A DNA stretch of 63,768 nt, filler included, from Folioceros fuciformis (taxonomy: Eukaryota), in NCBI GenBank assembly GCA_049999805.1. It is 25 parts of 25 records of this genome, joined end to end, with 100 filler letters (N's around TTAATTAATTAA, not from the genome) between each part and the next. Parts side by side here need not be neighbours in the genome. Positions count along the whole stretch, not along the records: positions 1 to 12,816 come from JBNGIO010000025.1; 24 more parts are not named here. One strand, written 5' to 3'. Position numbers and translations under genes: made by a program. The notes beneath the pieces are model-generated. The model saw only the letters and a list, made by a program, of their open reading frames with translations, did not search any database and had not been told where the DNA came from. Position 1 is the stretch's first letter; the number at the start of each line of letters is the position of its first letter. This document shows, piece by piece, positions 1 to 45,113 of this stretch.

Positions 1-470
1 GTCCTCCTGTGATCAATGAGACTCCTGTCGAGCAAGGTCTGGAATTCACCTCGAAACTCGTTACCCTGGTCTGTGAGCACTTCCGCGCAGCTCCCAAATC
101 GGCTGAGCACACACTGCAGAAACGCTCTGCTAGTGTAGTGTGAAGTTCTCTGTGGCAAGAACGCTACTTCAACCCACTTAGAGAAATGCTCAATCATGAC
201 CATGCAATGTCGGTTACCTTGCTTTGTGAGGGGAAGCTCTGGCATAAGGTCAACCGACCATCTAAAGAATAGCCCCCTGATTGGTAGGGAGTGCAACACC
301 ACATCCTGGGTGTTAAATCGGGCTTTGACTGCATCACATGTAGCACACTTAGCAACCACCTTCTCGACATCTGCATACATCCCTGACCAGAAATACGTGC
401 TTTTCAGCATGTGGTGTGTCCTCTTCACACCAAAGTGGCCAAGGGTTTCGTGCACCTTGGTCACTATGCC
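1..470 (-). other. Integrase domain (HHCC zinc finger plus first two Asp of DDE core)
   Basis: VHETLGHFGVKRT...YFWSGMYADV..CATCD...RWSVDL...IEHFSKWVE...VLTDQGNEF. Confidence 0.92.
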
Positions 471-3400
471 CACTCTTTCCTCATGACTTGGTACTTTCCT
501 CACGAGTTCTCCTTCTAACAGTAGCAGCTCACCATTTTTCCATGAGTATTTGGCCACGCGCCTTCTGAGTTTAGCCAAGCCTGCTTCAGTCATTCCAGGC
601 ACTGTGCCTTCCTTCAGCAACTGTAGGGCTTGAGGATGTCTCCAAACATCCCTGACGGACTCTGTCAACACATGTCCTTCTTCATGCTCACCTGTCCTGG
701 CCATGAGTGCCATGAAGCTGCTGGGTGCACCATCTACGTGCCCCTCGTCCTGTCGAGCTCCTGTGACATCCTTGTCACTGTCCAGCGGATTTCTGCTTAG
801 CCCATCTGCATTGTGATGTACCTTGCCTGCCCTGTGCACGATCTCCATATCGTACTCAGATAGTAGCAGTGCCCATCTGGCTAGCTTACCACTTAACTTC
901 ATGTTGGTCATCAGCCAATGAAGTGGCTGGTGATCTGTGACCAGTTGAAAACGCCTTCCATACAGATAGACCCTGAAATGCAGAACTGCCCATACCGCAG
1001 CAAGACACTCTCCCTCATATGAGGAGTAGTTCACTTCAGCGGAGTTGTTAGATCGGCTTGCATAAGCTATCACTCGCTCAACACCATCTGCAATGTGCCA
1101 TACATGAACCTCTTTCGTCACACTCTTGGTGGACAGTTCAGTATCCACAGCGGCCATGCTGAATCTCTCGCGCAGCAGCTCGTCTTCCTCTGCCTTAGGA
1201 ACCTCTTTATCCTGCAGTAGTTGGAGGAAAGGCCTTCGCTTCCCTTCGGCTTTTGCAAGTTGGAACGCCAAGCCTGTGCTTACCAGCCACCTTAGACTGT
1301 ACAAGTCAAATGCCTGTCCGAGCATCCTGCACCTTGCAGATTCTGTGATGCCCATGGTCTGAGTGTCCTTCTTGGCAAAGCCCATCGCTTGCTCGCGTTC
1401 CTCAACATTGAGCTCTCCAAGCTCATTCCCTTTCAAATCCAGAATCACACCATCTCCTCCTGGTCTGAAGGCATAAGATTGCGGTGTGCTCACCAGAGTT
1501 GGCCATGCCCTTCTGGATTCCCCTACTCGATTCACAGGGTAAAATGGCAACTTGTCCATCCTCTTCACCTGTTGTGAGCACCTTCCCAACTCTAGGATAT
1601 CATCCACAACCTTCCGCTTTGGAGTTGTCAAATTCCTGTGCTGTCTGAGCACCTCCAGTCCAGCCACATTTGTCCAGTAACTGCGAAGCCTGTGTGCATA
1701 TGAGCCACACTGCACCGCGTCCATGATCAGCTCATTGCCGAACCACGCCCGAATCTCTTCATACAGGGCCCTAACAGCTGGACGTTTGTCCATGGCTGCA
1801 CACACATTCTCCAGAATGTACCAACATCGTGGATTCGCAATCTGGACTTCTCGCGTGATTCGTGCGAGCTCAGCAGCCAACGAAACGCCTTCACCGTTGC
1901 CTCTGCCTGCTGTCGAAAATGTCTTGCATTCCCATCCCGCGATCAGCATATCCACTGGGCTTGACAAGGCTTGTAGCTGCCGCTTCCCAACCAGGTTCAC
2001 GTCTGTGGGCAGCCTGCTCTGACAGCCTCGAACTGCTTCCTCGCTCAGTAGTGTTGGATACTGTTTGCAGAACCTGAGGATTCGACCCCTAGCGACAGCT
2101 CGAATCTTCTCATCCTTCTCCACGCAGGTATATTGCCGTATCTTGACGCCACACTGCAACACCGCTTCCAGGCCACTGCTGATTCCCGAGCAGAGCTCCA
2201 ACAAATGGATGCCTTGAGCGCCCACCTTCCATCGTACTAGAGCATCGTCGATGCGTCGATCTCCCGACTTGGCAGGCCCCATACCTGGGATCGACCTCTC
2301 AGGACATGTGTCTGTGAGATTCCACGGTCGATCCTCCTTCCTTCGCTGGTTCTCTCGAACCCTCGCTTGATCCAAATATTCTGAGCGCACCACCTTAAGC
2401 ACACCCTTCTGCTCTCTTGGCTTTGGCATCTCCAGAGAGGATAACTCCTGCGTTTCCTCCCACATCTCATGTCGATGTTCACTCTGAGCACTGCGGGCAA
2501 TCATGGTGCTACCTGTCATCCTCGTCCTGCTCTTGCCACCACTCCTATTCATCCTTAGAGGAATTCGTGCAACATGCGTGAAATCTCCTCTCCACCAAAA
2601 TGGTCTGTAGAAAGCTTCAGCGTGCAAGGGATCAACCCCCATGGCAGGACGGTGAGTTCCGTCCGACCCCAGCAAGACATCATATGTCTTCGCACTGGTG
2701 ACCAAACATCTCACTTCAACGATGCTGGCATCCTTCGTGCCAGGCTTCAATTCAATCTTCACGGGCCTCCTCGTCATTCCCAGTACCTGTTCCTTGGTAC
2801 CTGCAGAGGTGGTGATGTTCACGTCGCTCGGAACGAGCTTGTGTCCGTACAGCTTTAGTGCCTCCTGCACCCGTGCTCCCAGCAGTACCGGATCCGCTCC
2901 TGTGTCTACAAGTACGTTTACTGGAGCATAGCCATCAAAGGTCACGTGCCGTCCCGTGTTATCAATCATGGCAACACCTCCTCCACCTCGCGCCTCTGGC
3001 ATCAGATGCTCGCCACACAAACTGGCCATACTAGGGAGAGATCCTGCGGATTCAAGCTCCTTTCTCAGCCATTCTCGCATGATGTTTTTGAAGTTGTTGC
3101 CTTTCACTCCCAGATCCACAAGACTTACTGCAGGCACCTCCATGGCCTTGTCCAGCAACGCCTCAACGTCTCGACCTGATCTTGACACCTTCTGTGTCGT
3201 GGAGTTTCCCTCGACCTGCCGGAAACTCTCCGGCATCTTGGTCGATTCCCGTTCCGGCACTCCCTTCGCAGTGACGCCTTCACCAAAGTTAGCAACAGCC
3301 TTTTTCTTTTTCTTGCGCACCGCCATCATGCCAAATGCCTCATCATCATTAGAGTCAGAGAACAAAATCCTCTGCTCTATTCTGCTGGCCATGTTGGCCA

Positions 3401-4325
3401 TCTCCTTCTTGAGCTCCTCCACTTGCCCAAGGAGAGCCTTACGACTCGGGCCCTTGCCCTTCTCGTTCTCAGCTGATGCAAGCTTGGGCTTCAGCTCTGG
3501 ATGAGCTTCCCAACACGCTGCCTCCATGTGACCCCATCTGCCACAAGACTTACAGGCTTCCTTGCCCTTCGGACCACCTGGCTTGTAGTCGCATTCGAAC
3601 GCCTTGTGCGCTCCACAGCATCTGCCACACTTCACAGCTGCTTGACCTGCATTGTTAGCTGGCCTCTCCTTCGGCGCATGTGGCTGCTTGCCATGTCCTG
3701 AGGACTGTGCTTGCTCCCGGTACTGGTACCTTGGAACAAACCTGGAATTCCCGTGTCCTCCAGACCCGTGCTGCGAGGAGCCCTTCACGACTCCGTGATT
3801 TTCCAAGTAAGCCTGGCTTACTGCATCTCCTTTGAGCACCTTCTCAGCAATTTGGTAGGCGTCTATCAACTGATATCTTTCTCCCATCGCTCCATGCAGC
3901 GAGTCCATTACCTTCCTTCTTTGTCTGGCAGGCAATGCTGCTATGAAGATCTTGGCAGCCTCCCTCATCGTCTTCACTTCCGTGTCTTCCACCAGAACCT
4001 TCAGTCTGAGGTAAGATGCACGCAATGTCTCGTTAGGCCTGAAAGAAAACCTCGACAGTTCCTGGATCTTTTCCAGTGAAGCTGTAGGAAACATGGTGGT
4101 TAACTTGGCGAACATCAAGTCCACCAGATGCTCGAGCTTGTCCTCGTCAGTAGGGGGTGCAGTCGAACCAGCCCTCTTGGCCGCCTCGTGCACTGCTTCT
4201 CTTCTCTCGGCCACCTTCAGGATCCCAGCCTTCTCATCTCTGTAATACATTAGAGCCTCACCCGCAAGGTAGGATGACATCTTCATGAACGCCATCCTCT
4301 GAGTGAACTCGTCCTTGTATTTCAT
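3..4325 (-). CDS. Gag-PR-DNMT-(partial RH)-IN polyprotein, over 1440 aa, open at the window edge
   Basis: Manual translation found no stop from ~4427 to base 3. Motifs: CGRCCGAHKAFEC and CKSCGRWGHMEAAC knuckles, VLVDTGA protease, DNMT motifs, VIAYASRS/YEGECLA/TDHQPL/NADGLSR RNase H, HETLGH..CATC zinc finger, WSVDL and LTDQG integrase core. Confidence 0.9.
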   Translation of the reverse strand, partial: MKYKDEFTQRMAFMKMSSYLAGEALMYYRDEKAGILKVAERREAVHEAAKRAGSTAPPTDEDKLEHLVDLMFAKLTTMFPTASLEKIQELSRFSFRPNETLRASYLRLKVLVEDTEVKTMREAAKIFIAALPARQRRKVMDSLHGAMGERYQLIDAYQIAEKVLKGDAVSQAYLENHGVVKGSSQHGSGGHGNSRFVPRYQYREQAQSSGHGKQPHAPKERPANNAGQAAVKCGRCCGAHKAFECDYKPGGPKGKEACKSCGRWGHMEAACWEAHPELKPKLASAENEKGKGPSRKALLGQVEELKKEMANMASRIEQRILFSDSNDDEAFGMMAVRKKKKKAVANFGEGVTAKGVPERESTKMPESFRQVEGNSTTQKVSRSGRDVEALLDKAMEVPAVSLVDLGVKGNNFKNIMREWLRKELESAGSLPSMASLCGEHLMPEARGGGGVAMIDNTGRHVTFDGYAPVNVLVDTGADPVLLGARVQEALKLYGHKLVPSDVNITTSAGTKEQVLGMTRRPVKIELKPGTKDASIVEVRCLVTSAKTYDVLLGSDGTHRPAMGVDPLHAEAFYRPFWWRGDFTHVARIPLRMNRSGGKSRTRMTGSTMIARSAQSEHRHEMWEETQELSSLEMPKPREQKGVLKVVRSEYLDQARVRENQRRKEDRPWNLTDTCPERSIPGMGPAKSGDRRIDDALVRWKVGAQGIHLLELCSGISSGLEAVLQCGVKIRQYTCVEKDEKIRAVARGRILRFCKQYPTLLSEEAVRGCQSRLPTDVNLVGKRQLQALSSPVDMLIAGWECKTFSTAGRGNGEGVSLAAELARITREVQIANPRCWYILENVCAAMDKRPAVRALYEEIRAWFGNELIMDAVQCGSYAHRLRSYWTNVAGLEVLRQHRNLTTPKRKVVDDILELGRCSQQVKRMDKLPFYPVNRVGESRRAWPTLVSTPQSYAFRPGGDGVILDLKGNELGELNVEEREQAMGFAKKDTQTMGITESARCRMLGQAFDLYSLRWLVSTGLAFQLAKAEGKRRPFLQLLQDKEVPKAEEDELLRERFSMAAVDTELSTKSVTKEVHVWHIADGVERVIAYASRSNNSAEVNYSSYEGECLAAVWAVLHFRVYLYGRRFQLVTDHQPLHWLMTNMKLSGKLARWALLLSEYDMEIVHRAGKVHHNADGLSRNPLDSDKDVTGARQDEGHVDGAPSSFMALMARTGEHEEGHVLTESVRDVWRHPQALQLLKEGTVPGMTEAGLAKLRRRVAKYSWKNGELLLLEGELVRKVPSHEERVGIVTKVHETLGHFGVKRTHHMLKSTYFWSGMYADVEKVVAKCATCDAVKARFNTQDVVLHSLPIRGLFFRWSVDLMPELPLTKQGNRHCMVMIEHFSKWVEVAFLPQRTSHYTSRAFLQCVLSRFGSCAEVLTDQGNEFRGEFQTLLDRSLIDHRR
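790..1087 (-). other. C-terminal half of Ty3-type RNase H
   Basis: DGVERVIAYASRSNNSAEVNYSSYEGECLAAVWAVLHFRVYLYGRRFQLVTDHQPL...NADGLSR. The N-terminal DAS motif is absent. Confidence 0.9.
1280..2213 (-). other. C5-cytosine DNA methyltransferase domain within the polyprotein
   Basis: Motifs in canonical order: I GIHLLELCSGISSGLEAVL (~2165-2213); II YTCVEKD; IV VDMLIAGWECKTFS (Cys codon 1926-1928); VI YILENV (~1803-1820); VIII DAVQCGSYAHRLRSYWTN (~1669-1722); IX EEREQAMGF (~1377-1403); X LGQAFD (~1305-1322). Confidence 0.9.
2660..2920 (-). other. Retropepsin aspartic protease domain
   Basis: NVLVDTGADPVLLG (DTG at 2898-2906) and C-terminal YDVLLGSD. Confidence 0.85.
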
Positions 4326-4609
4326 CTTGTTTTTTCCGCCATTGCCCAACGAAACTTCTCCTCGAAATCTGCAAGAGACATGCTTCCATGTTTTCCTGTG
4401 AAGACATCGTTCTTACTTGGTGTGAACTCAAGCTCCATTCTTGCAGACTCTCCGCTCCAATCGCCAAACTGTCTCCTTGTGACTGGCGCGTTGTCTCTGT
4501 ATTGTTCCGGTGTCCTCTTGAATGGCGAGTAGTAGTCGTCGTGCACTTCTCCGACTGAAGACGGCACAGGTGTCCTTTCGTCAGTCCACCCTGATCTCAG
4601 GAACACCAT
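4322..4609 (-). CDS. Probable Gag N-terminus, separated from the main frame by a 1-nt shift in an A6 run (~4330-4335)
   Basis: MVFLRSGW...FTGKHGSMSLADFEEKFRWAMAEK resembles a gag start. A -1 shift continues into NKMKYKDEF of the long frame. Confidence 0.6.
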   Translation of the reverse strand: MVFLRSGWTDERTPVPSSVGEVHDDYYSPFKRTPEQYRDNAPVTRRQFGDWSGESARMELEFTPSKNDVFTGKHGSMSLADFEEKFRWAMAEKTR

Positions 4610-4833
4610 CAATGGTTACTTCTCCTATGCCTGACCACTGCACGGATGTTGTCAAAGGGCAAATTGTTTCCACCGTTAGCCCAATCAGCTAGCCAGAAAA
4701 GTACATCCACTGCCTCTATCCACAAACGACTCCAGACGTATGCAGGCTCTTCTCCAGACAGCTCTGCTAACTCAGCAATCGTGAGACTACCACACCTAAG
4801 CCGTGTATAATCAATGGCAGAATTCCTGTCCAT
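4609..4833 (-). CDS. Small upstream ORF (74 aa) in the 5' leader, stop overlapping the gag ATG (TGATG)
   Basis: ATG at 4833. The stop and the following in-leader ATG overlap in a TGATG string at ~4607-4611. No homology recognised. Confidence 0.3.
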   Translation of the reverse strand: MDRNSAIDYTRLRCGSLTIAELAELSGEEPAYVWSRLWIEAVDVLFWLADWANGGNNLPFDNIRAVVRHRRSNH

Positions 4834-4993
4834 CAGAAAAACATCAGCCTATCTCTTAGTGCTGCCTCTGCAACACCCAACCTTCTCGGATCGCAGCTGT
4901 CTCCTGGGTTGGATGGTGGACGATTTCCGCCTCTTCATCCAATCTCCAGCGCGCCACAGTCTCCTCCAGTACCGTATCTTAGTCCCCAACAAG

Positions 4994-5004
4994 CGGATTG
5001 TTGA
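4994..5004 (-). promoter_or_regulatory. Non-tRNA primer-binding site (TCAACAATCCG), candidate self-priming PBS
   Basis: Directly follows the LTR end ...CACCACA. 4994-5007 and 5122-5135 form a perfect 14-bp inverted repeat. Confidence 0.75.
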
Positions 5005-5158
5005 TGTGGTGAAATCAAGCTGGAAAATTCTCCCAACCTGGCATTGCAACGAACCACAAGAACCTCTAGGAGACAAAGACACAGCAGGGACGAAGTATGG
5101 CTGTCTATTGGAACAAGACAAACATCAACAATCCGAGAATCCATGGCTGGGTGCCTAC

Positions 5159-5165
5159 ATATATA
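5159..5165 (-). promoter_or_regulatory. TATA box (TATATAT) of the LTR promoter; predicted TSS ~5135
   Basis: Minus strand CCTATATATGT, 30 nt upstream of the PBS-complementary sequence. Confidence 0.6.
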
Positions 5166-5636
5166 GGCAAAAACCCCCAGGAGTTCTTGATGAAGTGTCC
5201 ACCCGTATCGATGGTGGGCACTTTATAATCCTACTTTCCTTGATTTATGATTTTTATGTATTTTTTAATATCTTCTAATATAAATCTGCTATCTATATAT
5301 GTGACATAGCACCGCACCTTTCATGCACAACCATGCATATAGGTTATATGCGCCATGACACATCACCTGCCACATGTCCACATACATCACATGTCATCCT
5401 TCATCTCCATATACATGCATACATGGCACACATGCATACATAGCATACATGCATATATGGCATACATATCATGTACAGGCCATCCATGGGCCATGTACAT
5501 AACATCATAAGCATCAGGGCTTATGCCCGAGATGCTCCAGTCAGATGCTCCAGTCAGTATCTAGTCATCAGGGCTTATGCATCAGGGCTTATGCCCAGGA
5601 TGCTCTGTTTCCCATACAGCAACAGCATGACAGCCA

Positions 5637-5808
5637 CCTTCTGCAACTCCACCAACCTCCCCAGCAGGGTATCAACTTCCCGAGAGCTTCCCAGCCCTCG
5701 CCTCCTGCTCCCTACATGGTTCCTTCTGCAACTCCACCAACCTCCCCAGCAGGGTATCAACTTCCCGAGAGCTTCCCAGCCCTCGCCTCCTGCTCCCTAC
5801 ATGGTTCC
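5637..5808. repeat. Tandem duplication, 85-bp unit x2, within the LTR
   Basis: CCTTCTGCAACTCCACC...CTACATGGTT starts at 5637 and 5722 with apparently identical units. Confidence 0.9.
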
Positions 5809-8800
5809 GGCTAGCAGATCTAGAACATCTTCGGTGCCCGAGACAAGCTAACTTCCTTCCACAGGCCCCCCTTCGCCAAGTTGGAGAACTATTTGCACAC
5901 TTTCACTAATAAAGCTTGGTGAGACAGGACTCCAATTCTGGCTCGGACGCGAGGATGTGAAGAAGAGGGCCGACGAGCCTCTAGCTTGCTGTCCAGGTCC
6001 AATTCGATTGATCTCGCCCGATGCACGACTGCCTGCTCCTTTGGATCCGGTCAGCCCCCATCTTGATTCGTCTCAGAGTCACCTGCCAGCCGGCCGGACC
6101 GGGTCCTGCTAATCCGTTCTGCCTTCCTGCTTGAACTCGCAGTCTGCCTAGGCGATCCGGCCAGGCACCTGCCTGCCTGGATCCGCCTGCAACACGCCTG
6201 TTGGCGACCTCCTGCCGGCCGAGATTCGTCAGCCTATCCATGTCGCAAGGTAGCCCCTTGCTCCTTGCTTGATCGACCTAGCCACGATCCAGCCCGTTGC
6301 CAGGTTGCACATCCCCTGCAGCGGCCCCTGCTAGTCGATCAGCCAGGCCGCCTGCCTAGCTCCAACCGTGCTAGCCGCTTATCCAGCCACCAACAGCCTG
6401 GCTACTGCAGCCATGACTCAGCTAGCTCGTCGATTGGCTACGGTTTAGTCAGCCAACTTGGCTGCTTGATCCGCAGACCCGCCTGCCTACTTATCCAGAC
6501 CCGCCTGAGCAAACAGCCAGGCCGCCAGTCATCAGCTGGCTGCTTGCCTGCAGTCACCTGGTGATATCCGTCTGTCCTGATCTTGCCAGACCTCCTGGAG
6601 CCTGCCAGCCAGGCGCCCTCCAGCTCTGACTAGCGCCTGCCAGGAGCCTACCACCGACCCGCCTGGCTGCTACCTGCCCATTCAGCCCGTTGGATCCCGC
6701 CGGGCCTTAGCCCAAATCCAGCCCCCAGCCTACTGCACCTATGGGTCCGGTTAGCCTGCCACCAACGCGACCGGCCTAGCAATTCGGCTAGGCCGCTGTC
6801 GGGATCCACCTGCTGTCCGGCCGGCTGAATCCCACCTTGCCCCGCAGTCGGCCGGATCCACTCGGGACCACAACCCAAACCCAGCCTACCCCTGTGCCAA
6901 CACGGCCTGCTTCAATCCTGCCCTGGCCTGCCATGCCCTGGATCGCCCTGCCAGCCAGGATCCGGCTGCTGTTGGGCCGCTTGCCAACTTCCGGATCCAG
7001 CCCCGGTCCTGACCAGCTTGAATCCGCCCTGGCTGCCTGCTGACCGCCTGCAAGTCGGGCGACTGCCTGGCTAAGGCAGCCAGCCAGGCAGCTGCCTGGC
7101 TTCGGGATCCGATCCCAACTAGCCTGCCAGCCAGCAGGTCTCCCCTAGCCAGACGGCACGCCGGCCTGCTCCTGCCGAGCTGGACTGTCTAGCGATCCCG
7201 CCCGCATCTGCCTGGACCACCTGCCAGGCCGCCTGTTGGACGGCCTGCTCCTCAGCAACCGCCTGGCTGCCGCTTGGATCCGACCCAGCCAGCCACGTCG
7301 ATCTAGCCTCAGACTCGCCCACCAGCCAACCGTTTGCCCAGCCGCCCGGCAGCTGCGTAACTGCCTAGCTGGATCCGTCTGCCTGCCAGGCCACACGCCA
7401 GCCGCCTGCCATGATCTTGTCCTGCTATGCACTTGGCCGCTATCCATCCAGCCTTCTGTCCCTTGGCTGGATCCAATCGCCCATGCCTTGCTGATTCACC
7501 TAGTCGCCAGCCGTCAGGGGGCAGCCTGGCTGCCTGCCCGCCTGCTGGCTGCCTGCTGCTAGGCCGGGCTGCCTACCTGCAGCCGGGCCACTGATGGCCC
7601 AGCCCCAGGCGGGATCCACGCCGTTGCTGGCTCTAGCCATGACTAGCCGGCCAGCCCGACTGATCGCACAGCCGAGCCGCTGCTGGCCCAGCCTTCCTCT
7701 AGACCCCTACTAGGCCCCTTCTAACCGGCCGCCAATCGACTATCCAACCAGGCCGACTGGTGCTGACTGGCCAGCTGGCCTAGATCCACCGCCTAGATCC
7801 GGCCTAGCCTGATCCGACCCCGGCTACATGCCTCCACCCTTCTAGACCATCTGACCAGACCGGCTAGCCTAGCAGCCGGGCCACTACTAGCCCAGCCACC
7901 TGCCATGCCTGTCTACACTCCTCCCCTCGGCCAGGCGCTGCTGGCTGCCTTTCTAGCCCTCCGCCATTCGACCAGCCCGGCCACCCACCTGCCTGCAGCC
8001 ACGACCAATCCGGCCGCCCAGCCAGGCCCCAGGATCTGCTGGCCAAGCAGCCAGGCCGACTCCCGCTGCTCTTGCCTGCCTGCAGCCCGCCCGCTGGGCT
8101 GGCCACTGCCGGGCCGGTCTGGGTGCCTGCATGCTAACGGGTTGGGCCGCCTGCCCCTTGTGCCTGTGGCTGACCTATTCTGATCCATCTCGGCGGCCCG
8201 TGCAGCCCGATCAGATCGCCCGGGGACTGCTTGGACCTAGCAGCCATCGACAAGTCGGGTCGCCTCCCTGGATCCCCCCGGCCAGTCGGTCTGCTGGATC
8301 CAACCCGTAGCCCGCCATCAACCCACTTCGACACAGCCTGATCCGTCTGCCATGCACCCTGCCGGCTTTCTGCTATGCAGGGCTATCGAGCTGCCCGCCC
8401 GTAGCCCAATTTGCTAACGGTTCGTTGCTGGCTGATCGGCCCAGAACTTGAATGAACCTCCTGCTGGCTTCCAGACCCAGCTGTCGCCGAGCCGTCGGTC
8501 GTGCACCTGATCCGGCTCCCCACCGCTGCAGCCAGCTTGGTGCAGTGGCACTTGAAGCCCCCTCCTCGTTTGACCGACTTGTTCCCCTGGTCTGGCTGGA
8601 CAGCCATCATCCGCGATTGCCCAGCCCCAATTGCCTGTCCCCAATTGCCCAGCCCTCGGTTGATCGGAACTGGATCCAGCCAACCTGCTTGCGCACTCGC
8701 CTGGATCCGGTGCTGGCCGCCTGCCAGCCAGCTGCGACTAGCAGTCTGCCATTTCCCTTCCGGGTCTGGCCAGGCAACCAGACCACGGCCCGCTCGCTGC

Positions 8801-16541: not shown

Positions 16542-19500
16542 TCATCCACTGATCCAGATAAGGCATCCCGTTAGCATACTGTAGGGTTTCTTTGCCATTT
16601 CCAACTTCTCTGCTTCTGTTTTTGGACTCTGGTCTGTGGAGAACTTCTCTCCCACAGCCATTGGAGTGATAGCTGGCTTGCAGTCTGTCATGATGAATCT
16701 TTCTAGCATTTGTCTCACGTAGTGTGCTTGGTGGCAGAAAATACTACTCTTGTCGGGACTGATCACTATCTGTATGCCTAGGAAGAAAGTGAGCTGTCCC
16801 AAATCCGTCATGGAAAATTCAGCAGTGAGGATGGACTTTACTTTCTTCATGATGTCTGGAGAGTTAGCAAATATCAGTGCATCATCGACATACAGTGCCA
16901 AGATGGCAAATAATTGCCCTTGCCTCAGGATGTATACATTTGTGTCAGCATCACTCTGGGTGAATCCAGATTTTACCAGGTAAGCATGGATCTTTTGATA
17001 CCAGATCCTTGGTGCTTGCTTTAAGCCGTACAGGCTCTTTCTTAGTTTGCATACCTTATGTGGTTCTGACTTGCTGACATAACCCTCAGGCTGGGTGATA
17101 TACATCTCCTCGTCTATTTCACCGTGCAGAAAGGCAGTCTTGACGTCCATCTGGTGAATATCCAGTTTGCACTCAGCAGCCAAGGCAAAGAGCATTCTTA
17201 CTGAAGAGGCTCGTACGACAGGTGAGAATGTCTCATGGAAATCCAGTCCTTCGACCTGTTTGTATCCATGAACAACATACCTTGCCTTGTATCTCGCTAC
17301 TGACCCATCGGGGTTCAACTTCTTCTTGAACACCCACTTTCCTGTGAGTGGTTTGCGTCCTGGAGGCAGGTCTACCAGCTCCCAAGTTTGGTTGTCGATG
17401 AGAGACTGATATTCAGAGTCTATACCCACCTTCCAGAGCTTACCTTCTGGAGAGGACAATGCTTCCTTCAGTGTGGCAGGTTCTCCGAGGTCCTGGGCTG
17501 CCATCAGGGCGCATGCAACATAATTACGAGGTATGTGCAAGTCCTGAGCTCCAGGGGCATCTGAGCTGGATGCGAGGTTTGCATGTTTTCTTCGATGCTC
17601 CTCATCCAGTTCATAGCTTAGCGGTTTGTGAGTCCACTGACTTGGATCCGTTGTATGTGTCCTTGCAGATCTCCTGGGTTCCTGCGGTGCTTGAACCACT
17701 TCTTCAGCAGCCTGGGAGTGAGGCTGCTCCTGGTTCTCCTCAGTTTCAGATGGAGGAGAATGTGGGGGACTGTTGTCAGTCTCATTGTCATATTCCTCAT
17801 GCTGAGGCTTGTTGTCCTGGTCGCTTGTCTCCGAGGTAGAGTCATCAGCAGTGAGGTCAGGTTCATCTTCCGGGAAGGCAGCAGCAGGCTGTTCAGCGGC
17901 AGAGTGTGCTGGCTGAGAGGTAACCAAGTGCTCATCATGTGTTGAAGATGCATCTTGTTCATCAGTTGTGAGGCGTTCCAGGCCAGGTACGTCTCTGCTC
18001 TTTTCTGAGGCTTGCAGAAGAAACTGCTCATCAAAGATAACATTTCTGGCATGCAGGAAACGACGATTCAGGGGGTCATAGAGTTTGTAGCCTTTGATGC
18101 CCTCTGTATAACCAATGAACAGATGTTTGGTTGCCTTGAAGTCCATCTTGCGTCTGACTTCATCAGGTGTATGGGCATATGCTGGGCAGCCCCAGATCCG
18201 CAAATGGTCCACTCGAGGTTTGACACCAGTCCATCTCTCAAAGGGTGTGGCGTCAGCAAAGGCACGAGTGGGTAGCTTGTTTTGAATGTAGACGGCTGTG
18301 GCAACAGCTTCTGCCCAGAAGCACCGGGGAAGCCTGGCAAGATGCAGCATAGATTTGGCAGCAGCTTGGGTGACCTTGTTTTTGTTCTCAGGCAGAGGGT
18401 TTTGCTCATGCTCGTAGGGAACGGTAAGTTGCCGTAGAATACCCTCCCGTGAGCAAAAGTCGGTGAATTCTCCTGAGGTAAACTCCCCGCCATTGTCACT
18501 TCTCAAGCATTTCAATTTCTGACCTGTAAAGCGCTGGGCATACGAGAGGTACAGCAGAAAACAAGAGAAAGCTTCACTCTTGCGCTTGAGAAAGTAAGTG
18601 ACTGTAAAGCGACTCCAGTCATCAATGAGATGCATGAAGTAGAGGGCACCACTGAGGGAAGGTGTGGACATGGGGCCACAAAGATCAGTGTGCACTGTTT
18701 GAAGTAACTGAGTAGCTCTCGTTGCATCTTGACTGGGATGTGGAGCCTTATGATGCTTCCCTTGTATGCAGGCTTCACAAAAGATGGAAGTCTCTGACTT
18801 GAAGTGAAGAGGTGTCCTGTACAAGGATGAAGCAGGCAGAGTCCGGAGACGTTGAATGTGAACATGTCCCAGTCGGCAGTGCCACAGTTGTGTCTCACTA
18901 GGAGAGCTAATGGCTGTTGCATGAGCAGCTGGTGCCTTCAGCTGCTGGATGGGGTTGCTCTTCAAGTTGAGCTGATATAAGTCATTTTTGAGAGTACATG
19001 TGACCAATAACTGGTGTGGTGCAGCAGCCTCCCGCAGAGCAAGACCATCAGTTGTCATCTCCAGGGTAAGCAGAGGAGGAGACAGGCGTCTTAGAGACAC
19101 CAAATTTTTGGCCATCTGTGGGACAAAGATGACGTCTAACAGAGTGATGGTTTTGCCTTGTGCAGGGTGAAGGACAACTGTGCCAGTGCCCTCAATGCAT
19201 AGCCCACTATCATCACCTAAAAGAACGAAGTGTCCCTTGGGAGAAGACTTGAAAGTGGTAAAGGCTGTGCGAGTGTTGCAGACATGCGTGGTGGCACCTG
19301 AATCTAGATACCAGGCATGTCTGTCTTGAGAAGAAGAGACCATACACACTGTGAGGATGGCCCCTGTACTTTTCTTTGAAGATACATGAGCAGATGGAGG
19401 AGCTTCTCGCTTGGGTTCACCATTCTGCTTCTTACGGCATTCAGATTCCACATGCCCTGGGATCCTACACCATGTGCAAGGACCTCGCTTGGCATTGTTG

Positions 19501-19598
19501 GACTTGGAGGCTGACCATGCAGGGCGAGGAGAGCCTGGTTTGTAAGGTGGGCGATTGCCACCTTGAGCACGCCGTCCTCGTCCTCGAGAAACGAACAT
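16542..19598 (-). CDS. Copia pol (Zn knuckle-PR-IN-RT), prematurely stopped; frame continues past the stop
   Basis: 1018-aa ORF. Readthrough gives *TRPDVA...HWTGVKRVLRYLKGT. Confidence 0.9.
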   Translation of the reverse strand: MFVSRGRGRRAQGGNRPPYKPGSPRPAWSASKSNNAKRGPCTWCRIPGHVESECRKKQNGEPKREAPPSAHVSSKKSTGAILTVCMVSSSQDRHAWYLDSGATTHVCNTRTAFTTFKSSPKGHFVLLGDDSGLCIEGTGTVVLHPAQGKTITLLDVIFVPQMAKNLVSLRRLSPPLLTLEMTTDGLALREAAAPHQLLVTCTLKNDLYQLNLKSNPIQQLKAPAAHATAISSPSETQLWHCRLGHVHIQRLRTLPASSLYRTPLHFKSETSIFCEACIQGKHHKAPHPSQDATRATQLLQTVHTDLCGPMSTPSLSGALYFMHLIDDWSRFTVTYFLKRKSEAFSCFLLYLSYAQRFTGQKLKCLRSDNGGEFTSGEFTDFCSREGILRQLTVPYEHEQNPLPENKNKVTQAAAKSMLHLARLPRCFWAEAVATAVYIQNKLPTRAFADATPFERWTGVKPRVDHLRIWGCPAYAHTPDEVRRKMDFKATKHLFIGYTEGIKGYKLYDPLNRRFLHARNVIFDEQFLLQASEKSRDVPGLERLTTDEQDASSTHDEHLVTSQPAHSAAEQPAAAFPEDEPDLTADDSTSETSDQDNKPQHEEYDNETDNSPPHSPPSETEENQEQPHSQAAEEVVQAPQEPRRSARTHTTDPSQWTHKPLSYELDEEHRRKHANLASSSDAPGAQDLHIPRNYVACALMAAQDLGEPATLKEALSSPEGKLWKVGIDSEYQSLIDNQTWELVDLPPGRKPLTGKWVFKKKLNPDGSVARYKARYVVHGYKQVEGLDFHETFSPVVRASSVRMLFALAAECKLDIHQMDVKTAFLHGEIDEEMYITQPEGYVSKSEPHKVCKLRKSLYGLKQAPRIWYQKIHAYLVKSGFTQSDADTNVYILRQGQLFAILALYVDDALIFANSPDIMKKVKSILTAEFSMTDLGQLTFFLGIQIVISPDKSSIFCHQAHYVRQMLERFIMTDCKPAITPMAVGEKFSTDQSPKTEAEKLEMAKKPYSMLTGCLIWISG

Positions 19599-19659
19599 GG
19601 CTCGTGCAGGATTGCTGGAGGAGGCTCCACGACCACGAGTATGAGTGGCCTCCTCGTTG

Positions 19660-20803
19660 AGCAGGCGCCAATGATATCTGAGAGTGTGATTTGAGATTGT
19701 GTCCCAGCAGCTACTGCGGCTTGAGCTGTTTGTATATGTTGATTCTGAGTACTCACAAAGCTGTTGTATTTTTCTGGTAGTGACATAAGGAGGGCCACTG
19801 CAGCTTGGAGTTCATCAACAGCAGTGCCAGCCGTGATCAGGTTGGTACGTAGCATTCTGAAACGGCTGACGTGATTCTCAACAGTATCTCCATCTCGCAT
19901 TCTCAGATTGTAGAAGACACGTGTAGCATGAACGAGTGTTGTAACACTTTTCTTTTGGTGCACTTGGCAAAGGGAATCCCATATTGCCTTCGAACTGTCT
20001 GCCTCCCGGGCATGAGACATCATGCTTAAGTCCAAAGCAGAATGGATTACGTTTTGAGCACGAAGATCCTTGAGTTTCCAGGCATGCTGGTCTGCTTGAC
20101 TTGCAGCAGTTGCACCTCCAGCAGGTGTTGCTGGCATTGGAGTTGCTCCAGTGACATACTCCCAAAGTTCGAGTTCTTGTAAGATGGTGTGTACCCGAAT
20201 CATCCATATGTCAAAGTGTTGGCCACTAAATCTATCTTTGTCTTTGAAGTCATACTTAAAGTTGTTGACTGTGACGTTTGCAGGAGGATTAGTGCCCATG
20301 GCTGTGTATTGACTAAATTGCGTCTGACTTAGATCAAACAACTGATCAAGATGAAGTGAAGAAGAGTGACTAGATGCTGGTGAATTATGTGAGGACCTTG
20401 GTGTGGAGGCAGAGCTACCAGAAGAGGGAGGCTGAGAGAAAATGACACCGGATGATAACGTGCCTAAAGTGCTTACAGAAGCTAATGCTGGATCTGGAAG
20501 GGTGTACTCGTCTGAGTAGTCGAAGGGATTTTCTGGAAGGACAGGTGTCTGTTCAAACCCAGAAATTGGTGACTCTTCGGATACCACTTCAAATCCAGCA
20601 GTTGGCAGCGTTTCAGGTGCTTCTTCAGATCCGACTCTTTCTGGTGACGTTCCAGATCTTGGGCTTGAAGGTGACGCTTCAGAGCTCGATCTTGGACGCG
20701 ACGTTCCGGGTCTAGTAGGAATCCGGCGCGGTGGCCTCCCGGCTGGGCTTGGATCCCAAGGTTCCGACATGTTCAACCACCATCTTTCTTGATTTCTCTT
20801 CAA
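19660..20803 (-). CDS. Copia gag with long Ser/Pro-rich N-terminal extension
   Basis: FKDKDRFSGQHFDIWMIRV...LWEYVTG...IWDSLC...LLMSLPEKY. IIGA is frameshifted from the expected LLNEE. Confidence 0.85.
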
Positions 20804-21362
20804 GTGTCATCTGTGTCAGGAATGCGGCCACCTCAGAGATGACGTCGTTCTTGGGTCTCCCACCAGGTAGAACGCAGGGCGGCTCTGAGTGGAAATTTGG
20901 CACAGTTTGATGCAGATTGATGAACGCTGTTCTTTCTGGCTCAGTTTCCAGTTGCTGAGCGCTCTGCTGCTTAATCACTCCTTACAGGTGGGCTACCTTC
21001 GTGAACAATGCATTCAGGTCATGAGACAGATGTTTGGCTCTGCAGTTGATGTTGTCAACTTTGTCACGGAGGCGCCCATCCTGGACTTCGCGCATTCGCC
21101 GAAAGTCACACAATGTTGCGTGTGTGTGACGACGCTCCTCAGCGAATAGCTGGTGAAGAGTCCTCAATGCCGGCTGTGGCAGGTCAGGTGCGACCTCAGG
21201 CGCGCTCGCAGATGGATGCAGGTGCGCACTCCTTCCGCAATTGCTGCAAGAGCTCTCAGCTTGGTAAGTGCAGGGTGGTGGACGTGCACTCCGCGGTGTG
21301 GCCTCCGCTATGCTGACTCTGTGTGGATAGAAGGTGCGCCTTGAGCGACCATTGCGAGGCAT
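20712..21362 (-). CDS. Extra ORF 5' of gag, coiled-coil; probably one ~216-codon ORF split by a TAA at 20982-20984
   Basis: The track ORFs 20982-21362 and 20712-20978 are in the same frame. Motif NIx9DLxxLxxxVxHL is shared with ORF 39556-40047. Confidence 0.55.
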
Positions 21363-22541: not shown

Positions 22542-25500
22542 TTAGCTCGCGAGAGAGAAATCTGTGACTCCCAGAGTAGCCATATGTCGCGCATGTGGAG
22601 AGGAAGGCAGAAATTTTGTGAGAAGATCAGCAGGATTCTCCTCTGTAGGGATATACTCAATTTGTACTTCCTTTTCTTGCACAGAGTGGCGAATAAAATG
22701 GTGATGCACCTCGATGTGCTTAGTTCTCGCGTGAAATCGCGGATTGGCAGTCATAGCAATCGTGGACATATTGTCACACGAGATCACAGTGGGCTGAGAT
22801 GGCAGAAACCCTAAACCACTGAGGAAACTGTGTTCCCAAATGGCCTCCTTGGCTGCTTCGGTCAAGGATTTGTATTCCGCTTCCGTCAAGGAGAGGGCAA
22901 CACTAGCTTGTTTCTTTGCAGCCCAGTGCACAGCAGAATCGGAGAGAAGAAAACAGTATGCGGAGATGCTTCGACGAGCATCAGGGTCGGTGGCCCAATC
23001 AGCATCGGCAAAATCACACAGAGCCTGATCCCGAGATCGCCCCCGGAAGCAGAGCCCATACTGTTGAGTGCCTTTCAGGTAACGCAAAATCCGTTTAACG
23101 GCACCCCAGTGCTCCTTTCCAGGATTGTCCATAAATTGAGAAACGACACTAACCGAGTACTGGATGTCCGGGCGAGTCCAGCAGCTGATGTAATTGAGAC
23201 AACCAACTGCATGGCGATAGGGCACTGGAGACATAGCTTACCGATCTGCATCAGTCTGAGGGCACTGATTGCGAGAGAGCTTAGCACCAACTGGGCCAGG
23301 AGTAGAAACAGGCTTCGAAGAATCAAGATGAAATCGTCGAAGAGTCTCTGCAATATACTTAGCCTGATGGAGAAAAATGGTACGAGAGGCTGGCTCACGA
23401 ACCAACTGTACCCCCAAAACGAAAGTAAGTGGACCGATGTCTTTCATGTCATATTTGCTGTGCAGCATCTGCTTTACCCAAGCTAAAAGTTCAGGGTTGT
23501 TTGAAGCCAAAATGGCATCATCGACGTACAACGCCAAAATCACCAGTTTACCATTCTGGGAGTACAAGTAGACATTAGCATCACCAGGATTTTGTATAAA
23601 GCCGATGGACTTAAGGTATTTGTCGATGGCCTTATACCACTCCCGTGCTGACTGCTTTAAACCATAGATGGTCTTCTTTAGTCGATAGACCCAATCTGGG
23701 TGTTCAGGATCCGCAAAGCCCTCGGGCTGCTGCATGTAAATATCCTCTTCTAACTCGCCATACAGGAATGTCGTACAGACGTCCATTTGTTGAAGATCCC
23801 ATTCATAGGCAGCAGCAAGAGCAATGATCATGCGTATAGATTGGGTTTTCACAACCGGACTAAAGGTTTCAGTGAAATCCACACCAGGAATTTGAGTAAA
23901 CCCACGAGCAACAAGGCGAGACTTGTGTCTGGAAATCTGGCCTTCAGCGTTAAGTTTGTGTTTAAATACCCACTTGCAGCTAATAACTTTTCTGCCTGCG
24001 GGAAGAGGACAGAGCTCCCAAGTGGAATTCTTGATGAGTGAATTATATTCATCTTGAATGGACGGCTGCCAGTGATGTTTATCAGGTCCTGTAATGGCCT
24101 CGGTATATGTGCGAGGTTCGAGCTTAGAAAAGGGTTGCTCAGCAGAATCCAGCAAAGCAACGCCAGCTCTTGAATGACGAAAATCAATTGAGGCATATGG
24201 TGGCTCCACCCACTCTGAAGGAGGTGGACGAGACCGACGAGGATATCTTGATTCAGTGGCATCCATGGATGGTGGAATTACCACATGAATTGTAGCATGG
24301 GGAGGCTCCTCAGACGGTATAGCAGGTGAAGCATCTGGAGGAACATCTGAATGGGCATCAGATGTGAAGGAGGAGGTAGGTATACCCGTCGCGGCTTGAT
24401 CCTGCTCAGATGCATGTGGCTGATCTAAAACATCAGCCATACCAACTTGGGAACCAGCAATTTCCCTTTTTAATTGTGGTAAGTAAAAGGAGTCCTGTTC
24501 TTCAGAGAAAACTGCAGATGTATCTGGCCCCAAGGAACCAGGTACAGAAGTAGCAGGGGAATCATCTGAAGGATACTCTGAAACATCTTCATCCTCAAAA
24601 GCATCGATATGTTCAACAGAAGACTGGTTATGTGGCAGAGAATCGAAGAACGGTTTAGCAGGTACGATAATTTCCTTAAAGGTTACACTTCGAGCATAAA
24701 CGGCTTCCTTGGAAAAGGTATCGTACAGCTTGTAGGCTTTCACCTCTTCTCCATATCCGACAAATATAAGTGGCTTCGCTCTGGCTTCCAATTTCTTCCG
24801 TTTGTCCTTTGGAATATAGGCATAAGCGGGAGAACCGAAGACACGAAGGTGGAGGAGACTAGGCTTTCGCCGCCAGACAACCTCAAAAGGTGTCTTATCT
24901 GCCACTGCCTTTGTTAACAAACGATTGAGGATGTAAGTTGCGGTTACCACTGCCTCTGCCCAGAAACCTTTACTTAATCCTGACCACTCAAGCATACTCC
25001 TTGTCATTCCAAGCAGTGTTTGATTTCGTCTTTCCGCGACCCCGTTCTGTTGCTGGGTGTAGGGAATAATCAACTGCCGAAGTATGCCATGATCAGTAAG
25101 GAATTGGGTAAAGTGAGAGTGTACGAACTCTGTCCCGTTGTCTGATCGGAGGCACTTCAAGGAACAACCAGTTTGCTTCTGAACAACAGGCAGCCAGTCC
25201 TTAAAAACACTGAAAGTATCGGACTTCAACCGGATGGGGTAAGTCCATGAATACCTGCTATAATCATCCGTAAGTGTAAAGTAGTACTGGGCTCCTCCCA
25301 AACTAGGAATATGTATCTTACCAGATATATCAGCGTGCACCAACTCTAACACATTGGATGCACGATGAGCGACAGTTCTAGGGAAGGGGAGCTCCTTTTG
25401 TTTAGCAACTACGCATGCATCGCATAAAGGAAGATCCTGGAAACATTTTGGCAGGGGTTCCCTATAACAGGTAAGACCAGAAAGCCTAATCAGTTTATCA

Positions 25501-27044
25501 CGGTTAGCATGACCTAATCTGGCATGCCAAAGACTGGCAACAGCAGCTTGAGAAAGACGTGCTGAATTGATCGAATCCCTAGTTACGCATGTCAGATTCA
25601 TCTGATAAAGATCATGCACTAATTTGCCATCAGCAACGACCTCTTGTCTATCTCCCCCTTTCTTCACTAACACACATCCTGTGGCAGTGAAGTACAGGTC
25701 AAGCTGATGCAAGGATAGAAGCTGGCTAACAGAAAGGAGATTCTTAGCCATATGAGGAACATGCAACACATGATCCAAGTGAAGGACTAAGCCATCAAGA
25801 AGACGAAAACGGCAAGTGCCACTCCCCCTGATGGACAGACCTGTCCGTGTTATCTCATCACCCAAGAGGACCTTATCTCGTAAAGATGAGGACCGGTAGT
25901 GAGTAAATAGCGATTTATCATTGCAAATGTGTGAGGTTGCACCTGAATCTAGGTACCAAACGTGTGGAAGAGATGGGAGAGAGGAGGCCAAGCAAACCGT
26001 CATCACAACGGGAGGTTTGCTGGAAAGGGAAGAAGAACGATCTCGGGTTGCAGTCACGTGAGCTTCAGCCGGACGAACAGGCTTCTCAACTCGACGGGGC
26101 TCACCAGATTTCTTCTTCCTACATTCTCTTTCCCAGTGTCCTTGGATACCGCACCAATTGCATGCACCTACTCGTTTCTGGGAAGTTGAAGGCTTCGAAG
26201 TTGAAGCACCAGGTGAAAATTTGCCTCGTGTGTTCTTGTTCTTAGCATACAGGACCTTGTCAAGTTTTGTGCGTCCCGTATGCTGTGTGGAACTAACACG
26301 GCTTTGCTCCTCTTGCAGCAAAGCACCGACCACATCAGTGAAATTGATGCGCGAAGGAAGACCTAAGGCAACAGCTCTGTCAGCTTCACGGAGGGTAGAC
26401 CCATTGCTGGACACGAACGGTTGGTAGCTAGGAGGCAGACTAGTAAGTAACTGAGCAACAACATCCAAATCTGGAAACGATGAACCCAGATGGATCAATT
26501 GTGCTCGAAGCTGACGAAAACGAAGAATGAAAGGTGAAACTTTTTCTCCCTCTTTGAGTCGTAGAGAAAAGAGCTCGCCTCTCACAGCACACATGGTGAG
26601 AATGTTCTTTACTTCATAAGTTTGCAGCAGTTGGTTCCATATGTCCTCAGCCTTAGAAATAAATGCCACATCTGGGAGGAGAACTTCATCGAGACCACTG
26701 ATCAATACCGCACGAGCGACACTATTCAGGTTCTCTCACCTTGATTTCTCCTCTGATGTGGAAGTTATTGACGGCTTCGTAATTGTCCCATCTACCACAC
26801 CCCACACATGTCTTGCTTGCAGGGCTGCAGTCATACGAACACGCCAGCTTTCAAACTTGGTACCATTGAAGCGATCACGCTCTTTGAATTCAGCAACATA
26901 AGTAGGCTGAGGTAAGACGGCAGAGGGAGTCGGAGGGGGAGAACTGTCTGGAGTGCCTCCCGCGCTCCCGCTGCCACCTTCTCCAAAGCCTCCTCCTCCT
27001 GCACTGAGATCACCTTGCCCTCCGCGTCGGCGCTCGACTGACAT
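22542..27044 (-). mobile_element. Ty1/copia gag-pol, full coding length with two premature stops
   Basis: Three collinear in-frame ORFs (27044-26736, 26705-23238, 23234-22542) carrying gag, CNWCGIQGHWEREC, WYLDSGA, integrase, RT LYVDD and RNase H (ADADWA, TEAEY, CDN, ADLLTK). Confidence 0.95.
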
Positions 27045-32430: not shown

Positions 32431-32695
32431 GAAGGCTATGTTGTGCCCTTGCTCGTGCAAGGGCTCAGGCCGGGGCTGGTGTGGGTGCTCGGTCCGGGTC
32501 TAGGACCGGCGCTCGGACGAGTGAGTGGATCCAAGCGCTTGTTGCTTGGGATCTAACTTCTAGAGTCAGTGGTGCTGGGATCGATTCTAGCGCTGNNNNN
32601 NNNNNNNNNNNNNNNNNNNNNNNNNNNNNNNNNNNNNNNTTAATTAATTAANNNNNNNNNNNNNNNNNNNNNNNNNNNNNNNNNNNNNNNNNNNN

Positions 32696-32892
32696 TGGCT
32701 ATGGCTATGGCTATGGCTATGGCTATGGCTATGGCTATGGCTATGGCTATGGCTATGGCTATGGCTATGGCTATGGCTATGGCTATGGCTATGGCTATGG
32801 CTATGGCTATGGCTATGGCTATGGCTATGGCTATGGCTATGGCTATGGCTATGGCTATGGCTATGGCTATGGCTATGGCTATGGCTATGGCT
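32696..32892. repeat. (ATGGCT)n hexanucleotide microsatellite, ~33 copies, truncated by the contig edge
   Basis: Perfect repeat visible in the sequence. Confidence 0.97.
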
Positions 32893-44581: not shown

Positions 44582-44885
44582 TGTGAACCTCCAAAGTTTG
44601 GGGTAGTAGTTTGTTTTGGTTGAAAAAGGGTTAATAGTGGTATGGTTTGGTTTTCTTTTTCAACTTATTTTCCCTAATTTTCCTTTATTTTATGGTCATT
44701 TTTCCTATTTTTCTTTGTGCTAATTANNNNNNNNNNNNNNNNNNNNNNNNNNNNNNNNNNNNNNNNNNNNTTAATTAATTAANNNNNNNNNNNNNNNNNN
44801 NNNNNNNNNNNNNNNNNNNNNNNNNNTCTTTTGTAAGTATCTTGAATAAAGAGCAGCATCTAGAGGAGGTGGTCTGCGAGTCGTC

Positions 44886-45113
44886 AGTGGACGGCGGGCT
44901 ACTTGGAGCCTAGTGCTTAGTCGTGTGAGAAGGAGTGAGTGAAGTGGACGGCGGGCTACTTGGAGCCTAGTGCTGAGTCGTGTGAGAAGGAGTGAGTGAA
45001 GTGAACGGCGGGCTACTTGGAGCCTAGTGCTGAATCGTGTGAGAAGGAGTGAGTGAAGTGGACGGCGGGCTACTTGGAGCCTGGTGCTGAGTCGTGTGAG
45101 AAGGAGTGAGTGA
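44886..45113. repeat. 57-bp minisatellite x4
   Basis: Units start at 44886, 44943, 45000 and 45057 (AGTGGACGGCGGGCTACTTGGAGCC...GAGTGAGTGA). Confidence 0.93.

Follow-up and report, generated by a model that had tools for sequence, protein, structure and literature searches.

A Tf1-type self-priming signature in a DNA methyltransferase-carrying Ty3/gypsy-like lineage with a member in Folioceros fuciformis

What primes reverse transcription in a retroelement whose terminal repeat is not followed by the usual tRNA-type primer binding site (PBS)? This question is raised by an element on the minus strand at the beginning of a stretch of 63,768 nucleotides from Folioceros fuciformis (25 joined parts of assembly GCA_049999805.1, hereafter the window). 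The element is Ty3/gypsy-like and carries a C5 DNA methyltransferase (DNMT). Its open reading frame of 1470 codons (positions 3-4412, minus strand) comprises, according to Pfam and to the alignment with relatives, a Gag with a zinc knuckle, a protease (PR), the DNMT, the C-terminal part of an RNase H and an integrase (INT), and continues past the start of the window, so that its own C-terminus lies outside. The Pfam matches of this frame are an aspartyl protease, the C-terminal four fifths of an RT-linked RNase H, and the zinc and core domains of integrase. The DNMT inside this gypsy-type polyprotein gives a weak PF00145 match (residues 804-877, E 0.001, under the curated cut-off), which sits between PR and RNase H; in relatives, the DNMT aligned with this region scores 2e-9 to 7e-12. 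The other large frames of the window are copia elements: Ty1/copia elements on the minus strand, with gag, integrase and RVT_2, and a plus-strand RVT_2 fragment (16542-20806, 23238-26735, 52484-53401). Repeats of 100-240 nt connect the regions at 27-30 kb, 41-45 kb, 49-52 kb and 57-61 kb, and two tandem arrays occur at 32660-32941 (12-nt period, about 23 units) and 44829-45170 (57-nt period, about 6 units).

In the alignment with relatives that show the domains DNMT-RT-RH-INT-PHD, full copies have the order Gag-PR-DNMT-RT-RNaseH-INT-PHD, and both the reverse transcriptase (RT) and the N-terminal RNase H are absent in frame from the window copy. Full-length relatives end in a C-terminal PHD finger, and a PF00385 chromodomain, sought on their integrase, is absent. 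The closest database proteins are 40-53% identical, one coming from Closterium and one from Klebsormidium nitens, the latter (P0032) with 40% identity across 22% of the query. The solved structures nearest to a full-length family member are Ty3 proteins (7q5b, 4ol8). Of 105 protein matches, those that bear a name and fall outside the DNMT/PHD group carry the labels Ty3-I or K02A2.6-like, and Tf2 is absent from them, which is a weak hint as regards membership of the Tf1/sushi clade. The RT-less junction near 1090-1290 is covered in the DNA runs described below (X1 and X2) to a depth like that of the remaining element, and a contig of a third run (X3) spans it; the abundant form in the genome may be a non-autonomous Gag-PR-DNMT-INT derivative. 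In another X3 contig, 20 other letters stand between 688 and 1087 in place of window positions 689-1086, one contig each of X1 and X2 has a loose end at 1087, and depth is about halved over 869-1085. The joint, the loose ends and the depth together indicate that many copies carry a further deletion or replacement in the RNase H and the start of the integrase.

The place of a PBS depends on where the terminal repeat ends. In this regard, Logan contigs of four public runs were aligned to positions 1-6500 of the window at 80% likeness. Two of them, X1 and X2, are DNA runs that share the organism label. X3, seen through its contigs only, is guessed to be an RNA run, since in it the flank of the element is deeper than the high-copy element itself and skip joints occur. 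Contigs of other copies (three in X1 and two in X2) agree with the window from 5008 upwards and diverge below, so that the repeat ends at 5008. A sequence-only reading of this DNA had placed that end at 5005 and had noted that no TGG-initiated PBS follows it; the boundary has moved by three bases, and the second point holds, since a TGG, sought in the window copy from the repeat end onwards, is absent within 19 nt. The nearest one lies at 4988-4986, 20 nt downstream on the minus strand, where TGGGGACTAAGA... (from 4988) would be a possible tRNA-type site oddly distant from the repeat end. Below 5008, two consensus strings built from the loose ends have their last four letters and one eight-letter word in common; this likeness indicates that elsewhere the repeat precedes related sequence and not a random flank.

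At its other side, the repeat opens with TGTCATG (5632-5626, minus strand), a terminal heptamer shared with related families, and one X3 contig has a loose end at 5632. The summed word depth in X1 and X2 is about 250-1050 in the coding part, about 970-2600 over 4992-5642 and 37-113 past 5643, a drop in copy depth of some 15-40-fold beyond 5643 that agrees with a repeat start at 5632; this profile makes the window element a high-copy one with its 5' edge near 5640. The 5' terminal repeat, which we call A, is thus LTR-like, 625 nt long (5008-5632, minus strand), as depth, loose ends and TGTCATG place it, and holds the promoter, the predicted start of R and U5. No second copy of the repeat was found within the window. 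Its upstream third varies among subfamilies, as judged from contigs that leave it at 5508 (three of X1 and three of X2, with shared sequence and a consensus agreement of 0.7), at 5432 and at 5388 (single contigs); short internal duplications occur within 5510-5600, and this upstream part is rich in short repeats of the ATG/CAT type. One base of the repeat, 5044, is private to the window copy, all 13 X1 and all 11 X2 contigs having another letter. Just outside, 5 nt past the 5' end of the element, there is a perfect 85-nt tandem duplication (5637-5806), and this duplication and the G+C-rich flank to about 10000 are deeper than the element in X3 and show skip joints; the flank is probably an expressed host gene.

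Direct reading of the minus strand reveals a perfect 14-nt complement between CGGATTGTTGATGT at 5135-5122 (arm 1) and ACATCAACAATCCG at 5007-4994 (arm 2), which breaks off past 14 nt on both sides. The previous reading had reported an exact 11-nt complement (CGGATTGTTGA at 5135-5125 and TCAACAATCCG at 5004-4994), the same length as the 11-nt self-primer of Tf1, and this agrees with our reading. It had also extended the pairing to 14 bp into the end of the LTR: the 14 bp are exact, but with the repeat ending at 5008 the second arm lies wholly outside the repeat, at the position of a PBS. Arm 1, predicted to form the first 14 nt of the transcript and to be its self-primer, begins 30 nt downstream of a TATA box (TATATAT, 5165-5159, minus strand), as originally pointed out; in relatives, the spacing is 29-32 nt. 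When the 14-mer is searched with up to two mismatches through the whole 63.8-kb window, two sites are found, which are the two arms, against a mean of 0.22 matches in shuffled sequences. Arm 2, the predicted PBS, abuts the repeat end, a placement to which the complement, the boundary at 5008 in the contig set and the shuffles described below all point. The predicted leader (5135-4985) folds at -44.2 kcal/mol with a z of -1.9, a modest margin that 9 of 200 shuffled sequences equal, and the leader of the related locus L081 has a z of -3.05. Across the leaders folded, the first 13-16 nt pair with the site after the repeat, in these two leaders in the minimum free energy (MFE) as well as in the centroid structure, and in another related locus, L018, and six metagenome copies in the MFE fold. 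Both structures of the window leader contain in addition a predicted 10-bp hairpin in U5 (5016-5040, minus strand), 8 nt upstream of the PBS, which may be a counterpart of the U5-IR stem-loop of Tf1 that Lin and Levin reportedly described in 1998. Not all copies of the repeat seem to keep arm 1, as one X2 contig passes from 5076 to 5153 by way of 17 letters (its word depth is 336, that of the repeat about 2000-4000), a joint that we read as a repeat variant without 60 nt (5136-5077), arm 1 included. As for the transcripts, X3 contigs end at 4979 and 5089, and one X3 contig (5089-5634) crosses 5135 uninterrupted, which is uninformative on the start site because such a contig is expected from transcripts of the 3' copy or from read-through.

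If the two arms work as a pair, the pairing should be kept in relatives whose sequences have changed. A scan of metagenome contigs gave 80 loci with 45-51% protein identity, all but six of them from one DNA family (hereafter the metagenome family), and a scan of a prokaryote genome collection gave eukaryote contigs from contaminated bins (L081-L086); no relatives were found in viral contigs. The related loci are therefore metagenome or contaminant contigs, L081-L083, L085 and L086 being eukaryote retroelement contigs in prokaryote-labelled bins and L084 coming from a contig assigned to a bacterial MAG; the assemblies of L081 and L018 are collapsed or permuted. In the metagenome family, repeat A is about 300 nt long, starts with TGTCATGCC and contains TATAAAA. 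Its arm 1, AGTTTTTCTAGA(ATT), lies 32 nt past this box in all six copies examined, and its arm 2, TCTAGAAAAACT, the exact reverse complement of AGTTTTTCTAGA, follows directly after the 5' A, the duplex reaching 15 bp when the last three bases of A are counted. The copies of this family are old, with their two A repeats 84-96% identical; of the 17 5' copies listed, 9 keep the 12-mer TCTAGAAAAACT unchanged, and the other eight, old and decayed copies whose own two A repeats are 84-92% alike, have one to three changes in it.

A third family is represented by L081, whose A starts with TGTCACG, with arm 1 (ATCTTTGTCAAGT) 29 nt past TATAG and arm 2 (ACTTGACAAAGAT) located at the end of A after another 176 nt. 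The locus L018 shows 73% DNA identity to L081 and has the arms ATTCTTGTCAAGT and ACTTGACAAGAAT, or in full GACATTCTTGTCAAGT and ACTTGACAAGAATGTC, which form a 16-bp duplex. Between both loci, two neighbouring bases of arm 1 change (C to T and T to C) and so do their partners in arm 2 (G to A and A to G), that is, two compensatory pair changes separate the subfamilies L081 and L018. Altogether, three DNMT gypsy families share one geometry, with arms of 12-16 nt, the first 29-32 nt past a TATA box and the second abutting the repeat, and this occurs with arm sequences that are mutually unrelated, in relatives with protein identities of 45-51%. Arm 2 starts with TGG in none of the three (window, metagenome, L081/L018). 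The pairing between the start of R and the PBS, which was to be followed across related families, has therefore been kept through changed sequence, as three unrelated arm pairs and the two compensatory changes indicate. Further arm pairs were sought at the 5' ends of L017, L061, L079, L003, L011, L073 and L054, where truncated or unrelated flanks gave nothing usable, and the contigs of L083, L085 and L086 (45-47% identity) stop short of the 5' end. A small, more distant gypsy element (32% identity; 6916-12156 of L084) has identical 248-nt TG..CA LTRs and a TGG-type PBS, so that the self-priming signature is specific to the DNMT lineage. Two of these relatives also show how their frames are arranged: L081 has one in-frame stop (3491/3492) between Gag-PR-DNMT and RT-RNaseH-INT-PHD, L018 has a single one at 5085/5086 in the same arrangement, and the downstream frame measures 1047 codons in both, a pattern that suggests programmed read-through, which would place the DNMT in the abundant product.

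The 3' ends of the relatives have a more unusual arrangement. Both related families have the layout A1-PBS-internal-PPT-B1-NN-A2-B2, where PPT is a polypurine tract. In the metagenome family, a G-run is followed by a repeat B of about 177 nt (ATACATGAG...CACGACA), two bases, A and a second B, and the third family shows the order PPT-B-GC-A-B in L082. Among 57 loci with B, 25 have B-A-B, 23 a single B followed by flank, four B-A followed by other sequence, and five reach the end of the contig; the short form A...B is thus about as common as the long one. Of 31 junctions from B to A, 25 have a gap of exactly 2 nt, and B was found upstream of the 5' A in none of the 16 copies with sufficient upstream sequence. 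Elements of this family start with TGTCATG... and end with ...CACGACA, whereas A itself ends in ..CAAT and not in CA. Ends were read in 13 elements, of which 8, six long-form and two short-form, are flanked by perfect 4-bp target duplications; of the remainder, one has a 3/4 duplication, three have truncated or mutated 3' ends and one is ambiguous. Loci with split repeats include L010, L016, L046, L060, L075, L076, L043 and L077. At the A2/B2 joint, A stops with the base that immediately precedes the PBS in its 5' copy, and the first base of B2 is the base after the G-run, or polypurine run, in B1. The joint therefore coincides with the expected starts of minus- and plus-strand synthesis, provided that arm 2 is the PBS. 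In the window copy there are hints of this layout only, namely the TGTCATG start shared with the A of the relatives and the similar continuations below 5008, as its 3' end lies outside the window. Two familiar classes were considered for the relatives and rejected: a canonical LTR element with equal TG..CA repeats does not fit the lack of B upstream of A (0 of 16) and the B-A-B ends (25 of 57), and a tyrosine-recombinase element of the DIRS/Ngaro kind does not fit the presence of rve and Integrase_H2C2 domains, the absence of a recombinase domain and the 4-bp duplications in 8 of 13.

With these data, the 14-nt complement of the window is probably a self-primer/PBS pair of the Tf1 type, in a DNMT-carrying Ty3/gypsy lineage with a PHD finger in its full copies. 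The sequence-only reading had proposed that the DNMT lineage is self-primed, a proposal that now finds good support in the pairing, its position, the geometry in relatives and the covariation. In such a mechanism, transcription would start at or next to 5135, about 30 nt past the TATA box, as the spacing suggests, and the first 13-14 nt of the RNA would fold back onto 5007-4994, just after the 5' repeat, as expected from the sequence match and the predicted fold. By analogy with Tf1, the RNase H of the element would then cleave the RNA where the duplex ends, and the 3' OH so released would prime minus-strand DNA through U5 and R, no tRNA being required for priming. As the window copy has no RT, the signal could be used there only with enzymes from full-length copies.

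Could the same pairing have arisen for another reason? The first possibility to weigh is a chance complement within a repeat-rich, low-complexity LTR, which might be fed by the ATG/CAT-type short repeats in the upstream part. As a control, 5000 dinucleotide shuffles per sequence were searched for a complement of at least the observed length starting within -3 to +6 of the repeat end. For the window, one of the 5000 shuffles reached the 14 nt, so that chance is not strictly null for this single copy, but none did so for L013 (16 nt) or L016 (15 nt) and one for L081 (13 nt); two more families with zero or one success each, the same place, the same TATA spacing and compensatory changes leave coincidence with a negligible probability. 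A second possibility is that a host tRNA, a tRNA half or a small RNA primes at 5007-4994 or at 4988, the match at 5135-5122 being secondary. Half-tRNA priming does occur in plant copia lineages (PMC6317226), and the TGG located 20 nt past the repeat end would offer such a primer a site. A PBS set by a tRNA, however, should stay conserved and not co-vary with the LTR, whereas the three families have unrelated non-TGG PBSs, each fitting its own R start, with two compensatory changes between L081 and L018; besides, the TGG stretch at 4988 is without counterpart in relatives. Priming by a host RNA at either site is accordingly very improbable. A search for tRNA genes gave none in the window and a single odd tRNA-Tyr(ata) call among 47 related loci.

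It is harder to set aside a leader helix conserved for another job, such as packaging, dimerisation, control of translation or help in strand transfer, with a different primer in use. Pairing and covariation indicate selection for a helix, and not for priming as such, and the start of transcription is predicted from its TATA spacing. What speaks against such a helix is where its arms lie. In the window as in the metagenome family, arm 2 begins immediately past the last base of the repeat, precisely where a PBS must be, and there is no other conserved candidate PBS at the repeat end; arm 1 is found in all three families at the TATA spacing of an RNA 5' end; and in relatives the joint between the end of A and the start of B marks the start of minus-strand DNA at the same boundary. 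We consider this explanation unlikely, and retain self-priming as the reading of the arm pair. From the covariation, self-priming predicts an RNA start at 5135, an RNA of 13-14 nt joined to the strong-stop DNA, and a rescue of transposition by compensatory mutations.

If the lineage is self-primed, how does it come to have repeats of a DIRS-like kind? The layout of the relatives resembles a 2-LTR circle cut open at a CA-NN-TG site in its interior. Under such a model, self-priming at the end of A and plus-strand priming at the G-run before B would give an ordinary product with an LTR of the form B-NN-A, and integrase would open 1-LTR and 2-LTR circles at the ..CACGACA-NN-TGTCATG.. palindrome and insert them with a 4-bp duplication. 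If true, the model would yield both A-int-B and A-int-B-NN-A-B forms, would account for DIRS-like split direct repeats in an element with an integrase, and would make the joint between the end of A and the start of B a fossil 2-LTR circle junction. Equally, recombination of one B copy with the other could turn the long form into the short one. That the lineage combines self-priming with insertion from circular DNA by a DDE integrase is then a tentative idea, possible but rather doubtful at present; in any case, the layout of the relatives provides a route to study the origin of DIRS-like split repeats and the use of a circle junction by DDE integrases.

Self-priming would release an LTR element from dependence on host tRNAs. 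Moreover, silencing by tRNA fragments is directed at primer binding sites of the tRNA type (PMC7472051), and a self-primed element would escape it as well. Together with an own DNMT and a histone-reading PHD finger, self-priming would point to an element with several means of coping with host control.

Among known systems, the closest in mechanism are Tf1 and Tf2 of Schizosaccharomyces pombe and Tj1 of S. japonicus. In Tf1 and Tj1, the PBS that follows the 5' LTR is the complement of the start of their own mRNA, and the primer is proposed to be released through cleavage by RNase H; self-priming of Tj1 and of Tf1 relatives was itself proposed from such a signature (PMC4600332). The likeness, which on our side is read from sequence, lies in a self-complementary PBS after the LTR and in the lack of a tRNA PBS. 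In contrast to Tf1 and Tj1, the elements described here have a duplex of 13-16 nt and a polyprotein in which a DNMT lies between PR and RT and a PHD finger replaces the chromodomain, and their relatives carry split direct repeats and not two equal LTRs. The window element is thus predicted to work like Tf1 as a class of mechanism, which does not imply a placement in the Tf1/sushi clade.

On the side of the coding sequence, the nearest precedent is KnitGypsy-Dnmt3 of Klebsormidium nitens, a gypsy Pol ORF with an embedded Dnmt3-like DNMT. According to de Mendoza et al. 2018 (PMC5890265, Fig. 4c legend), it has gypsy domains and a DIRS-like repeat arrangement, as in the relatives found here. The window element belongs to another family, as it shows about 40-50% identity to any database relative. 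The main text of that paper, whose supplements may hold a repeat map, contains no occurrence of PBS, 'primer binding' or 'self-prim', and the name KnitGypsy appeared nowhere else in the literature searched. As for the repeat order A1...B1A2B2 of the related families, it resembles that of Ngaro/PAT-like DIRS elements, which in contrast encode a tyrosine recombinase, whereas here we find a DDE integrase, TG..CA ends and 4-bp duplications. Ngaro/PAT-like DIRS elements are not known to make target duplications.

The sequence-only reading had also taken the combination of a DNMT with self-priming to be apparently undescribed. This stands for the combination, as a search of full-text literature for self-priming together with a DNMT gypsy element returned nothing relevant, and the link between both appears not to be in print yet within the literature searched. 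The mechanism, for its part, reaches beyond Tf1: in the survey of Neumann et al. 2019, self-priming is predicted for 12% of the plant LTR elements covered, namely Tcn1 chromoviruses and TAR copia elements (PMC6317226), and the main text of this survey has no occurrence of 'methyltransferase' or 'Klebsormidium'. Tcn1, from mosses and club-mosses, and TAR share with the window element the condition of green-lineage LTR elements with predicted self-priming, but as described there they belong to the chromoviruses or to copia, have ordinary LTRs and carry no DNMT. What we would have here is therefore a new lineage with a known mechanism, since self-priming had already been predicted for Tcn1 and TAR of plants.
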